Of a stretch of 64,000 nt of DNA, positions 31,836-60,254 are shown piece after piece. The position numbers and the translations under genes are program-made. The stretch covers positions 1 to 64,000 of the forward strand of contig CAZDTP010000001.1 of NCBI GenBank assembly GCA_964508365.1. Reading direction: 5' to 3'. This stretch comes from an uncultured archaeon (GTDB lineage: Archaea > Asgardarchaeota > Lokiarchaeia > Sigyniarchaeales > SOKP01). Every line of letters begins with the position of its first letter. Within the stretch, counting starts at the first letter, position 1. The notes beneath the pieces are model-generated. The model saw nothing but the letters and a program-made list of their open reading frames with translations, searched no databases and was not told the origin of the DNA.

Positions 31836-32075
31836 TTAGGCTTTGAAAGGTATATCGTGAATAACTTTATCTATTGCATTTAAGCAAGCTTCCTCCCAGT
31901 CATCATTCGGGTCAATTTCTTTGGTACAGTCTGGACACCAATCGCCAGAATATCCGTCATCGAAATCATCTCTCTCTAAATCGCCATTTAAAATCCCACC
32001 GCAATAGAAGCATTCACCATCGTCGTATCTATCTAAAATTTCTGCTATTAACTCAACTTTTTTCCTATTGTTAAT
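31836..32075 (-). CDS. Small acidic zinc-finger protein, 79 aa (absent from ORF track; apparent ATT start)
   Basis: INNRKKVELIAEILDRYDDGECFYCGGILNGDLERDDFDDGYSGDWCPDCTKEIDPNDDWEEACLNAIDKVIHDIPFKA*. Has CxxC...CxxC; in-frame TGA lies just upstream. The + strand track ORF 31874..32074 is its shadow. Confidence 0.75.
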   Translation of the reverse strand: MNNRKKVELIAEILDRYDDGECFYCGGILNGDLERDDFDDGYSGDWCPDCTKEIDPNDDWEEACLNAIDKVIHDIPFKA

Positions 32076-32170
32076 TTTTCACACCTAATTCTCTATATTA
32101 AAATCTTTATTATAATATTAGTTCAAGATATAAAAAAAGTATAGGTGAAATTTTTATTAAGAAAATTGAA

Positions 32171-57102: not shown

Positions 57103-58329
57103 CTAATTTATTAGGTTCCATGAGGAAACTAAGATAATTAACGCTAGGATTGCAATACAACATAATCCAATCCAAGATAATAAAGCATTTTTTACATAGT
57201 TAATTTTGAACTTGACCGCTTCATGGGGACATAATTCTACGCAACAGAAACAAGTAATACACTTATTCTTATCCCATTTTGGAATATTTCCTTTTTTTAT
57301 CTCATCAGGCGGTGTAATCGCATTAACTGGGCAATTAGTCCAGCAAGTAGAACACAACTTGCATTTCTCTTTATTGAACTTTACTGAGGCTTTAAATATT
57401 GTTTTTCCAATATAATTTGCCAACCATTTTGGTAAAGGCATTGATATTGGTCGAAGTTTTGGGCGTTTAAATTGTCGAAAAACAGATTCAATAGGCTCTC
57501 CGAGAAATTCTACGCTTTCTAAGTCAGTAGTTCCCAATTTCTTTTTTTCAGCTTTTTCTAAATACAATATTTCTTCTGGTTCAAATCCAATTATTTTACA
57601 CACTGCAGTATCAAGAGCAACGCCATCATATCCGGCTAAAATTATATCTAATTTAATCACATCGCCGCTAGAGGGACCTTGGCCTTCTTGACAGTAGTAC
57701 CCATCTATAACCGTTAATTGCGGTTTAGATATTGAATATATATCTACTAATGCCGAACAAAATCGCTCCAAGATTGCTGCTTGAGCATGGGTTTTAGCTT
57801 TATTTGCCAGAAGCACGGTCCCAAACATATTTTTAATACAGCATGTTAAGGTGCATTGCGAGTGGGTTTTAATTTTAGGAATGTTAATGATCAAATCTGC
57901 TTCTTTAATCAAAAGAGAACTCGATATCTCTTTCAATTCGAAAGGATCTTTGACTTCATAAATTACACGCTCAGTTTTTTCAAAAGGTATACAGATTGCT
58001 CCTTCTTCTTCGCAAATATCCTGGATACCACTTTCTTTCATGGCTGTTTCTGTAATCCCGGGTTTTTGACCCCCAGCAGAATCACTTACGTAAATTTTTG
58101 ATGGATTGAATTTTTTTACCCATTGAATCACAGCCCGAACAACTTCTGGATGAGTATTAACTGCTCTCTCAGCTGGTTTACCCATTAAGATATTCGGTTT
58201 TAATAGCACTACCATATTATCTTTTTGCATTAGTTGTTGAGCATTAATAAGTTCAAGTGCTGAAAAAACAGATGATTTTACATCCTCATTTTTAATTTTC
58301 TGAATAGCTACTTTGGTTATATAACCCAT
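57103..58329 (-). CDS. DUF362-domain protein with 2x[4Fe-4S] ferredoxin domain
   Basis: LKPN, T.PE, INIPK.KTH, T..IKN.FG, CKLCSTCWTNCP and CITCFCCVELCP motifs. Confidence 0.9.
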   Translation of the reverse strand: MGYITKVAIQKIKNEDVKSSVFSALELINAQQLMQKDNMVVLLKPNILMGKPAERAVNTHPEVVRAVIQWVKKFNPSKIYVSDSAGGQKPGITETAMKESGIQDICEEEGAICIPFEKTERVIYEVKDPFELKEISSSLLIKEADLIINIPKIKTHSQCTLTCCIKNMFGTVLLANKAKTHAQAAILERFCSALVDIYSISKPQLTVIDGYYCQEGQGPSSGDVIKLDIILAGYDGVALDTAVCKIIGFEPEEILYLEKAEKKKLGTTDLESVEFLGEPIESVFRQFKRPKLRPISMPLPKWLANYIGKTIFKASVKFNKEKCKLCSTCWTNCPVNAITPPDEIKKGNIPKWDKNKCITCFCCVELCPHEAVKFKINYVKNALLSWIGLCCIAILALIILVSSWNLIN

Positions 58330-58408
58330 AATTAGTATTCATTTGTAGAAAGTTAAAAGATTTAGCAAAATAAAATAGAAAGAGAAAAAAATATTTAAAA
58401 CTTATATT

Positions 58409-58660
58409 TTATCCGCCAGCCTGCGTAGCCATTACGGTAATTACATCCTTTTTTGGATGAATTCCTATTTTAGCGAACTTTAACTGGTCAGGAAGTACTT
58501 TTCCTTTAAAGATAAATTGAATAGCAAGAATAGGATTAAGTTTATATTCCCGTTGAACCGTTTTTTTAATTTCTGCTATAGATTGGTTTGGATCTACTTC
58601 AATTAATTTAATAGCCTGATCTGGTGGAACACCAGTTAATCTAAAGCGATATTGGGTCGT
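58409..58660 (-). CDS. Ubiquitin-like (beta-grasp) protein ending in GG, ~83 aa (absent from ORF track; non-canonical start)
   Basis: TTQYRFRLTGVPPDQAIKLIEVDPNQSIAEIKKTVQREYKLNPILAIQFIFKGKVLPDQLKFAKIGIHPKKDVITVMATQAGG*. Has ubiquitin-like I..IK, IF.GK.L.D and C-terminal GG. Confidence 0.88.
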   Translation of the reverse strand, partial: TTQYRFRLTGVPPDQAIKLIEVDPNQSIAEIKKTVQREYKLNPILAIQFIFKGKVLPDQLKFAKIGIHPKKDVITVMATQAGG

Positions 58661-58901
58661 GAGTTTTTCACATCCTTTTTAGTTGTATTTTTTTTTACAT
58701 TATTTAAATTATTACTATAATAATGTGAAAATTTTTAATTAAAAACAAAGGTATTTTTGATTAAATTGAAGTTTAGTTGGTTAAGAATGTATTTTTAGAT
58801 AAAACAAGGTCCAGATTCATAATTCCTTAAAGTCAATCTACCTAAAACTAAAGTATAAGTATAACCAAAAGTATAAATTTCTAAATATCTTTTTAATATT
58901 T

Positions 58902-60254
58902 ATGTCTAAATTCGTGGTAACTGCTAAAGTAAAGGAAAAAGTTTTATCAGAAATAAAAAAAATTGATCAAAACGATTTGCGGATTCTTTATTTATTACGG
59001 AATTTAGGACCATTGCGATTTACGAATATTATAGAATATTCTGGTTTGAGTAGATCTACAGTATCTAAATATATAAAGTTCCATATCTCTAAAAATAATG
59101 TTGAAAAAAAAATTTATAGAAATCCTTCAAAGAACATCCAAGAACAGCGCTATTTTATAACAGATTTAGGTACTGAAAAGCTTGGTGAGGATTATATTAG
59201 TAATGATGAATCAATTAATTTTAGTGAAATTAATGATCTTATTTTGAACCTTTCTGAATTAAAAAACTTTTACAAAGAAATTAGCGTTGCAGAATCTATA
59301 ATAACAGATATCACTCGAAATATTATTAATATGGGTGAAAATTATTTTTTTATAGAACAAAATCGTGATTTATATCTTACGCTCTTTTACATCTACAACA
59401 ATTCCGTTCTAACAAGAGATTTCAAATTTGAGATTATAGAATTCTGTAAACACTATAATGTAAAGAAATTAAGAATAGATTTTTATGTAGATCGCCTTTT
59501 ATCCAGCGATTTAGGATTATATATGTTTAGTCGGGGTGAAGATAAATTCTTTTTTCACAGAGAAGATGTACTAGGCGTTACGACCATACGATTAATTAAA
59601 GATAATTTGATAAACGAGATTGTTGAGTTGAGCATAGCTGAAGAAAAAATGATCTCTGACTTAGATTTAGATAAATTATCTGAAGATATAACTGAGAAAT
59701 TATTAGAAATGGAATTAATATGGGATATAAACGAATCTCAAGGGATCAGCGGAATAAAAGAGCCATTTGAAATGTTGGTTGAGAAAATGATAATTAAATA
59801 TGCTCTAGAGATGGGTATTCCAAGAACATCACTGATGGATATTGCGTTACAGTCTAAAAAACTGTTAAAAGCAGTAGGTGGAAAGAACTCTTTATATAAT
59901 ATTATAAACGATTCTGAGCGATATGAAGATTTAAATCTAATTTCAATCTCAGAATCTGAGGAGACCGAATTATTTCAAAGTCTAAAGTTACTACGCGGTT
60001 TTTGCCCAAAATGTGGTAAAACAGTGTTAAAAAATGATCTATCAAATATATGTGTTAGATGCGGATTAAACTTCGAAAACTATGAATTAATAAAGGATAT
60101 TGAGGCAGCAAGTGATTTAAGTGTTGCATATAAAATTACATCTATTGAAGGAGAAAAAGAAATTGAATGTCCTAATCCAAATTGCAATTATTATGTAAAA
60201 CCAAGTTGGGTTGAGTGCCCTGAGTGCCTTACTCCTTTGAGAAAAAAAATGTAA
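58902..60254 (+). CDS. Winged-helix regulator-like protein with C-terminal zinc ribbons
   Basis: N-terminal L.F..I...SGLSRSTVSKY HTH; CPKC/CVRC and CPNPNC/CPEC motifs. Confidence 0.8.
   Translation: MSKFVVTAKVKEKVLSEIKKIDQNDLRILYLLRNLGPLRFTNIIEYSGLSRSTVSKYIKFHISKNNVEKKIYRNPSKNIQEQRYFITDLGTEKLGEDYISNDESINFSEINDLILNLSELKNFYKEISVAESIITDITRNIINMGENYFFIEQNRDLYLTLFYIYNNSVLTRDFKFEIIEFCKHYNVKKLRIDFYVDRLLSSDLGLYMFSRGEDKFFFHREDVLGVTTIRLIKDNLINEIVELSIAEEKMISDLDLDKLSEDITEKLLEMELIWDINESQGISGIKEPFEMLVEKMIIKYALEMGIPRTSLMDIALQSKKLLKAVGGKNSLYNIINDSERYEDLNLISISESEETELFQSLKLLRGFCPKCGKTVLKNDLSNICVRCGLNFENYELIKDIEAASDLSVAYKITSIEGEKEIECPNPNCNYYVKPSWVECPECLTPLRKKM

Follow-up and report, generated by a model that had tools for sequence, protein, structure and literature searches.

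A free-standing ubiquitin-family gene of Lokiarchaeia most likely translated from an ACG start codon

How is a gene translated when its reading frame is closed upstream by a stop codon and has no canonical start codon near its 5′ end? This question is raised by a short frame on the minus strand (58660-58409) of the window, that is, of the whole 64,000-nt stretch of DNA analyzed here. On verification, the frame was found to encode an 83-residue ubiquitin-family protein (hereafter Ubl) with a GG-stop at its end. Read on the minus strand, an in-frame TAA (58681-58679), which closes the frame upstream, is followed by AAA GGA TGT GAA AAA CTC ACG ACC CAA TAT, and the last codons are GCT GGC GGA TAA, with the stop (58411-58409) immediately 3′ of the GG. 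The coding sequence of 83 codons, from the ACG to the terminal GG, thus occupies positions 58412-58660. From stop to stop the frame has 89 codons, and the sole in-frame ATG, GTG or TTG is a Met codon seven residues from the C-terminus. The encoded protein carries the motifs SIAEIKK and FIFKGKVLPD and the tail ATQAGG. A preliminary description of the locus had reported these coordinates, the closed upstream frame, the motifs and the lack of a canonical start near the 5′ end, and re-reading of the minus strand agreed with it on every point. No overlapping open reading frame of 30 or more amino acids was found on the opposite strand across the frame. Since the Pfam ubiquitin profile PF00240 matches the protein at E = 5e-10, above its curated cut-off (39.4 vs. 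25.4 bits), and orthologues with 66-100% identity are present in 53 of 60 related genomes, the frame lies far beyond what chance would produce.

In the genome-wide profile search Ubl scored 38.6 bits for PF00240. AlphaFold2, supplied with a 30-sequence alignment, gave a classic beta-grasp model (pLDDT 93, pTM 0.82) with predicted strands at residues 2-8, 17-22, 45-51 and 73-80 and helices at 28-38 and 62-65, in the order beta-beta-alpha-beta-beta-(3-10)-beta. A Foldseek search of this model against the PDB yielded 441 matches at E ≤ 0.001, with ubiquitin first (TM 0.75-0.84, about 22% identity), followed by SUMO, NEDD8, FAT10 and the Caldiarchaeum ubiquitin. Sequence matches in the PDB were polyubiquitin, the Ubl domain of Mdy2/Get5, ubiquilin and Rad23. 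Combined HMMER and family alignments placed invariant residues of the family at ubiquitin K27, I44, G47 and K48. In the beta1-beta2 loop, L8-T9-G10 follow the ubiquitin numbering and are succeeded by a 5-residue insertion (VPPDQ). The beta-grasp, ubiquitin-type fold with a free C-terminal GG, read from the letters in the preliminary description, is thereby borne out, and Foldseek, named there as a check, returned ubiquitin as the best structural match. The loose resemblance to UFM1 that had also been suggested did not hold: the protein does not match the UFM1 profile (PF03671) even at E ≤ 10, a genome-wide search with that profile gave no match either, and ubiquitin, SUMO and NEDD8 lead the fold comparison. 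Likewise, neither Urm1 (PF09138) nor ThiS/MoaD (PF02597) matched the protein at E ≤ 10, and Urm1 was not found in the genome by profile search. Membership of Ubl in the UFM1, Urm1 or ThiS families was therefore dropped.

Searching a protein collection with Ubl gave 184 proteins at E ≤ 0.001. Of the 120 best of these, several carry the label Lokiarchaeota or Promethearchaeota, and the name 'ubiquitin-like protein' is given to some. In 300 genomes sampled evenly from the phylum, orthologues (E ≤ 1e-20) were present in 67, all belonging to the window's class, and none was found with this query in 232 genomes of 26 other families. Six genomes of the genus seemingly lack the gene; in the three that were checked, the syntenic contig ends short of the expected place. 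Ubl is extremely well conserved: the family alignment has 22 invariant columns, and identity within the genus is 94-100%, compared with 37-94% for the neighboring wHTH protein and 64-93% for the neighboring DUF362 protein. The family is thus widespread and partly annotated in Lokiarchaeia, and Ubl is a member of an existing, uncharacterized ubiquitin family of this class. The gene is unusual in its use of ACG and in how its start codon has behaved in evolution.

The C-terminal tails were counted in 68 orthologues, leaving out three degenerate or truncated copies. Twenty-one end at GG, 41 carry one extra residue and six carry 2-14; the GG is kept in all 68, and the residues after it (0-14) are unconserved. 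Where a single residue follows, it may be I, F, C, N, L, V, Y, S, K, Q or A. An invariant GG with an unconserved trailer is the hallmark of a processed, conjugatable modifier. In the window's copy the GG is already terminal, and processing is not needed. One member of the genus has a second copy, 90% identical (L052, G020 contig C18:15268-15513); its start is ATT behind GGGGTTGA, and 14 residues follow its GG.

To locate the start, we judged its position from an alignment of 92 orthologous loci, and in 30 of them the DNA upstream of the conserved YRFRL was lined up. The typical orthologue begins M-(T/A/V/S/P)-Q-(Y/F)-R-F-R-L, and the window's ACG (58660-58658) falls in the column of the orthologues' ATG. 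ACG is absent from the initiators of translation table 11. Comparison of starts across related genomes, proposed in the preliminary description, also showed ACG at this column in four other species-level genomes (L003-L006), the closest relatives. All five loci carry GGATGTGA or AGATGTGA at 7, 7, 6, 7 and 6 nt from the ACG. In the window, GGATGTGA lies at 58675-58668 and matches GGAGGTGA in seven of eight bases; as the 16S rRNA of this genome ends in GGATCACCTCCT, this is a 7-of-8 Shine-Dalgarno (SD) match. In most orthologues a (G)GTGA-type motif (AGTGA or GGTGA) is found about 6-9 nt upstream of the start, and a few have only a degenerate one. ACG accounts for 12.3% of the Thr codons of this genome, and it is unchanged in all five ACG genes, while the next Thr codon varies (ACC/ACT). 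We consider it most likely, from this comparative pattern, that translation of Ubl starts at the ACG behind GGATGTGA. More generally, we put at roughly 80% the probability that the gene is an intact orthologue of a Lokiarchaeia-wide free-standing ubiquitin-family protein in which AUG has been replaced by the near-cognate ACG.

The preliminary description had left the choice between ACG, the preceding CTC and a frameshift from the GTG within the SD motif. CTC was dropped as a start because this codon is unconserved and reads CTT, GTC, ACC and GAC in the sister species. The frameshift would mean that the true start is a GTG (or ATG) inside GGATGTGA, reached through a programmed shift or concealed by an assembly or sequencing error in the run of five A (58668-58664) that follows the GTG. 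Indeed, the homopolymer adjoins the GTG, and one more A would give GTG AAA AAA CTC ACG. Yet ACG stands at the orthologous column in five independent species-level assemblies, and their spacers, AAAACTC (58667-58661 in the window, containing four A of the run), AAAACTT, AAAGTC, AAGAACC and AAAGAC, differ in length and allow no single indel to restore a common frame. As spacer lengths vary, the ATG and GTG within the motif stand in different frames in the different ACG species; in two of these, L004 and L006, an in-frame ATG runs directly into a TGA three codons ahead of the ACG, and the residues upstream are unconserved. Moreover, GTGA motifs at similar distance in most ATG-started orthologues identify the motif as the SD. 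We regard a concealed or shifted start as barely credible, and an ACG start as the reading to be followed.

This 5′ end also explains how the gene came to be overlooked. In the window the in-frame TAA leaves gene callers without any start. A single ACG species has an upstream in-frame ATG from which the frame is open, and its public protein entry is 106 residues long, with an unconserved 22-residue N-terminal extension, which shows how gene callers mis-start Ubl. The expectation that annotation pipelines would miss the gene thus proved right, in that it is missed or mis-started.

Use of codons other than ATG at this position is not confined to the five ACG species. Across 31 loci of the window's genus, the start column reads ATG in 19, ACG in five, ATT in four, TTG in two and GTG in one. 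In 19 loci of other genera of the family it reads ATT in 13, ATG in five and TTG in one, with no ACG or GTG, so that ATT occurs at 17 loci of the family. By contrast, ACG, ATT and GTG are absent from the 22 loci of other families, where the column reads ATG in 21 and TTG in one. At the ATT loci of the family's other genera, the TGA of the SD nearly always stands in frame two codons upstream, which makes an upstream start impossible there. In a quick tree of the wHTH proteins, the five ACG loci fall in a well-supported clade of nine, together with three ATG loci and one TTG locus, with interior branching that lacks resolution; two ATT loci are each sister to an ATG locus. These sister pairs and the ACG clade together indicate three or more losses of the canonical start within this genus.

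Weak starts appear in other genes as well. Genome frames with good coding signal and no canonical start sit behind SD motifs, and ATT, ATA, ATC and ACG occur behind such motifs genome-wide at 1.9-4.5 times their codon frequency, in a crude count that includes false positives. The gene for aIF1/SUI1 (PF01253; genome G000, contig C25:11557-11907, plus strand; L072:558-908) has no canonical start, and its 5′ sequence, AGG TTG TGA AAA AAG AGT ATT AAA GAC, does not vary across 28 genomes of the genus. Judging from this invariance, ATT is its most likely start codon. In two genomes of another family, ATA is found at the matching place. The gamma subunit of 2-oxoacid:ferredoxin oxidoreductase (POR gamma; PF01558; G000 contig C30:39601-40176, plus strand; L127:201-776) has ACG 7 nt behind GGAGGAG. 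At this position four species carry ACG and the other eleven loci of the genus ATG, with the same GGAGG upstream; three more distant loci begin differently. This exchange of ACG for ATG would be independent of that in Ubl. Weak start codons appear to be a habit of the whole lineage, of which the ACG of Ubl is one clear case.

Several single frames were recorded alongside. A Ras-family GTPase gene (G000 contig C60:12675-13271, minus strand) lacks a canonical start and reads GATGTGA TTT ACT ATA ATC (ATA/ATC), and the gene for ribosomal protein S28e (C20:60799-61050, minus strand), also without one, reads GGTGA ATT ATC. Genes for a threonine synthase-like (C28), a PIN-like (C10) and an esterase-like protein (C39) are further candidates for ACG starts. 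In the window itself, a well-coding frame of 80 codons (31836-32078, minus strand) encodes a small zinc-ribbon protein (CxxC...CxxC) with no Pfam match and no ATG, GTG or TTG; upstream it reads AGGTGTGA, followed by AAA ATT. This frame, too, is probably an overlooked gene, one that starts at ATT.

Does the ACG-started frame still work as a gene? Pairwise comparisons of the five ACG genes gave 8-33 synonymous and 0 non-synonymous differences (pS = 0.15-0.60, pN = 0), and L007, the nearest relative bearing ATG, differs from them by 21-34 synonymous and again 0 non-synonymous changes. In all five species the frame is intact and the GG-stop, the SD and the ACG are retained. Purifying selection on the frame has accordingly persisted after the change of start codon, and the excess of synonymous over non-synonymous differences indicates that the gene is expressed and under selection. 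A silent pseudogene that arose by loss of its start codon would also lack a canonical start, and in the bacteria tested ACG initiates poorly (10.1101/063800). Such a gene would hardly keep its protein unchanged together with all these signals; besides, ACG or ATT stands in for ATG in the indispensable POR gamma, aIF1, Ras-like GTPase and S28e genes. We judge silence of the gene to be very improbable, only slightly less so than the concealed start considered above.

Initiation might also be indirect, either by re-initiation after a minimal start-stop frame within the SD (AUG-UGA, GUG-UGA or UUG-UGA) or by C-to-U editing of ACG to AUG. An NTG-TGA does stand directly before the weak start in the window's Ubl, the g18 ATT genes, the aIF1 and GTPase genes and the window's 31836-32078 frame. 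Several ATT-started orthologues, however, have only AAG-TGA, GCG-TGA, ACG-TGA or AGGTGA, with no start-stop, and the GTGA is no more than the SD's 3′ half. Editing of this type occurs in plant organelles, but we know of no mRNA editing system in archaea, and it would leave the ATT starts unexplained. Both indirect routes thus seem to us improbable, and direct initiation at the ACG is the preferred reading.

In such a direct reaction, the 3′ end of the 16S rRNA would pair with GGAUGUGA and so place the small ribosomal subunit, and the initiator tRNA would accept the ACG 7 nt downstream, mispaired only at its middle base. Translation would yield (M)TQYRFRL...ATQAGG, probably at a lower rate than from AUG, and expression of Ubl is probably lowered as a result. 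We are not aware that ACG initiation has been proved biochemically in any archaeon. In E. coli, ACG initiates with Met at a low level, 0.1-1% of AUG (10.1101/063800). In Sulfolobus, aIF1 discriminates against AUU, and SD-bound archaeal initiation complexes sample triplets locally (PMC4705826, PMC6237735). A 'rare ATT start' has been proposed for an Asgard tubulin gene (PMC13394414). It is conceivable, though rather doubtful, that AUU and ACG are selectively maintained on the family's free ubiquitin gene and that ubiquitin supply tracks the stringency of start selection set by the AUU-started aIF1. The RNA fold of the 5′ region of Ubl was not significant (z = -0.77). A stem of 4-5 bp between UGUG(A) of the SD and (U)CACG, the sequence of which is kept in the five ACG genes, is weak and based on few sequences.

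The Ubl gene looks monocistronic. After its stop lies a T-rich tract (58391-58366); oligo-T is an archaeal termination signal, and the tract is likely a terminator. The next gene downstream, 79 nt away as described earlier, encodes a DUF362 and 4Fe-4S protein (57103-58329, minus strand) and adjoins Ubl in most members of the genus. On the other side, also in agreement with the preliminary description, a divergent gene (58902-60254, plus strand) encodes an ArsR/MarR-type wHTH protein with C-terminal zinc ribbons, a possible regulator. It adjoins Ubl in 28 of 29 loci examined, 27 of them from the genus, and the match from outside the genus is only 22% identical. Its match to the IBR profile is below threshold (17.8 vs. 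24.3 bits) and was taken as generic zinc-ribbon similarity. Alignment of the upstream regions with MAFFT showed that the 220-nt spacer between the two genes (58682-58901) is conserved in eight close species. It contains three copies of TATACTT (58877-58848), two of which overlap by one base, and these may be a promoter or operator element of the divergent pair. An Rfam scan of 57900-59100 gave only a snoRNA-like match below threshold (21 vs. 64 bits). In six genomes of other families Ubl has different neighbors (MutL, an enoyl-CoA hydratase-like protein and others), and there is no conserved synteny with E1 or E2. At two loci of another family of the class (L047:4016-4852, minus strand; L049:5622-6503, plus strand), a 279-293-aa protein with no Pfam match adjoins the Ubl orthologue; it ends in IIFPGG and may be a second GG-terminated protein.

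The statement that no E1, E2 or JAB gene is adjacent to Ubl was confirmed, and such modules lie on other contigs. The genome profile search found five ThiF-family, three UQ_con, two JAB and one RING-like genes, none of them adjacent, and three E1/E2 modules away from Ubl. Contig C3 has the cluster Ubl-E1(411 aa)-E2-JAB, contig C6 an E1 (525 aa) with an E2 nearby, and contig C31 the cluster JAB-E1(296 aa)-E2-like-RING-like. Neither the C6 nor the C31 module is accompanied by a Ubl of its own, and the two would be the obvious candidates to serve the GG-ended Ubl. Ubl would most likely be adenylated by one of the E1-like (ThiF) enzymes of the genome and handed on to an E2, which would attach it to lysines. 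Its removal would fall to JAB proteases, which would also mature the precursor in those species where residues follow the GG. Conjugation to proteins, as we infer from the invariant GG and the presence of E1, E2 and JAB genes, would leave a characteristic trace. The tail ATQAGG has no equivalents of ubiquitin Arg72 and Arg74, and the last Lys or Arg of Ubl lies 12 residues from the C-terminus. The diGly remnant envisaged in the preliminary description would therefore not arise, and the tryptic remnant would be the 12-residue DVITVMATQAGG.

That description had also allowed for a sulfur carrier. In this case Ubl, alone in that role or with a SAMP-like dual function, would be served by a MoeB-type ThiF of 246 aa (G000 contig C1:66148-66885, minus strand), 7.5 kb away. 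A C-terminal GG suits thiocarboxylation, and the ThiF gene, the start of which is overlapped by an upstream Roadblock/LC7 gene (L050:2145-3259; translational coupling), is kept together with it on the strand of Ubl, at a distance of 5-14 kb, in at least 18 members of the genus and two genomes of another family. Three complete genomes of other genera lack this linkage, however, and at about 7 kb in one genus it may be plain synteny. Ubl gives no ThiS/MoaD or Urm1 profile signal, four PF02597 proteins encoded elsewhere in the genome (contigs C26, C22 and C3) can fill the role, and both fold and sequence are those of ubiquitin proper, with equivalents of K27, K48, I44 and L8. We consider a sulfur-carrier function unlikely, somewhat less so than indirect initiation, and a protein modifier remains our preferred reading.

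Compared with known systems, Ubl shares with eukaryotic ubiquitin and NEDD8 and with the ubiquitin of Caldiarchaeum subterraneum (PDB 6fnn) the beta-grasp fold, L-T-G at positions 8-10, the equivalents of I44, G47, K48 and K27 and the C-terminal GG; as in those systems, its orthologues carry variable residues after the GG and the genome has E1, E2, JAB and RING-like genes. It differs from ubiquitin in its low identity of about 22%, in the VPPDQ insertion after LTG and in ending ATQAGG rather than LRLRGG. The Caldiarchaeum ubiquitin is operon-encoded (PMC5654768), whereas the Ubl gene is free-standing, seemingly monocistronic and away from any E1/E2. The three other PF00240 proteins of this genome match the same profile as Ubl. 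These operon-type proteins (G000 C3:62-67 kb and C12:20.8 kb; L051, L034), two of which flank the Ubl-E1-E2-JAB cluster, nonetheless differ from Ubl in having acidic N-terminal extensions, ends of AG plus 2-7 residues and canonical ATG starts. UFM1, Urm1 and SAMP/ThiS/MoaD have the small beta-grasp size and the C-terminal Gly in common with Ubl, but give no profile match, and the structure is closest to ubiquitin, SUMO and NEDD8.

Near-cognate starts are known elsewhere, as AUU in bacterial infC and pcnB and as ACG in eukaryotes. Like these, the Ubl codon is one base from AUG and conserved across species, and, as in infC and pcnB, the weak codon stands at normal distance behind a strong SD. 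A gene for a fidelity factor with a weak start is likewise found in both settings, aIF1 in this lineage and infC in bacteria. In contrast to infC and pcnB, the Ubl codon is ACG and the host is archaeal, and within a single family the start changes among ATG, TTG, GTG, ATT and ACG with an invariant protein.

Ubl is the most conserved ubiquitin-type protein of Lokiarchaeia, and it is missed or mis-started in standard calls at 22 of 50 family loci (ATT or ACG). Surveys of Asgard ubiquitin systems based on predicted proteomes will consequently under-count it. The case provides clean comparative evidence for an ACG start in an archaeon, with a column homologous to ATG, a retained SD, no amino-acid change and a second gene in which the same swap is seen, and it bears on how eukaryote-like start-codon selection evolved. 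As a free-standing protein ending in GG, Ubl also offers the orphan E1/E2 modules of these genomes a concrete candidate substrate.
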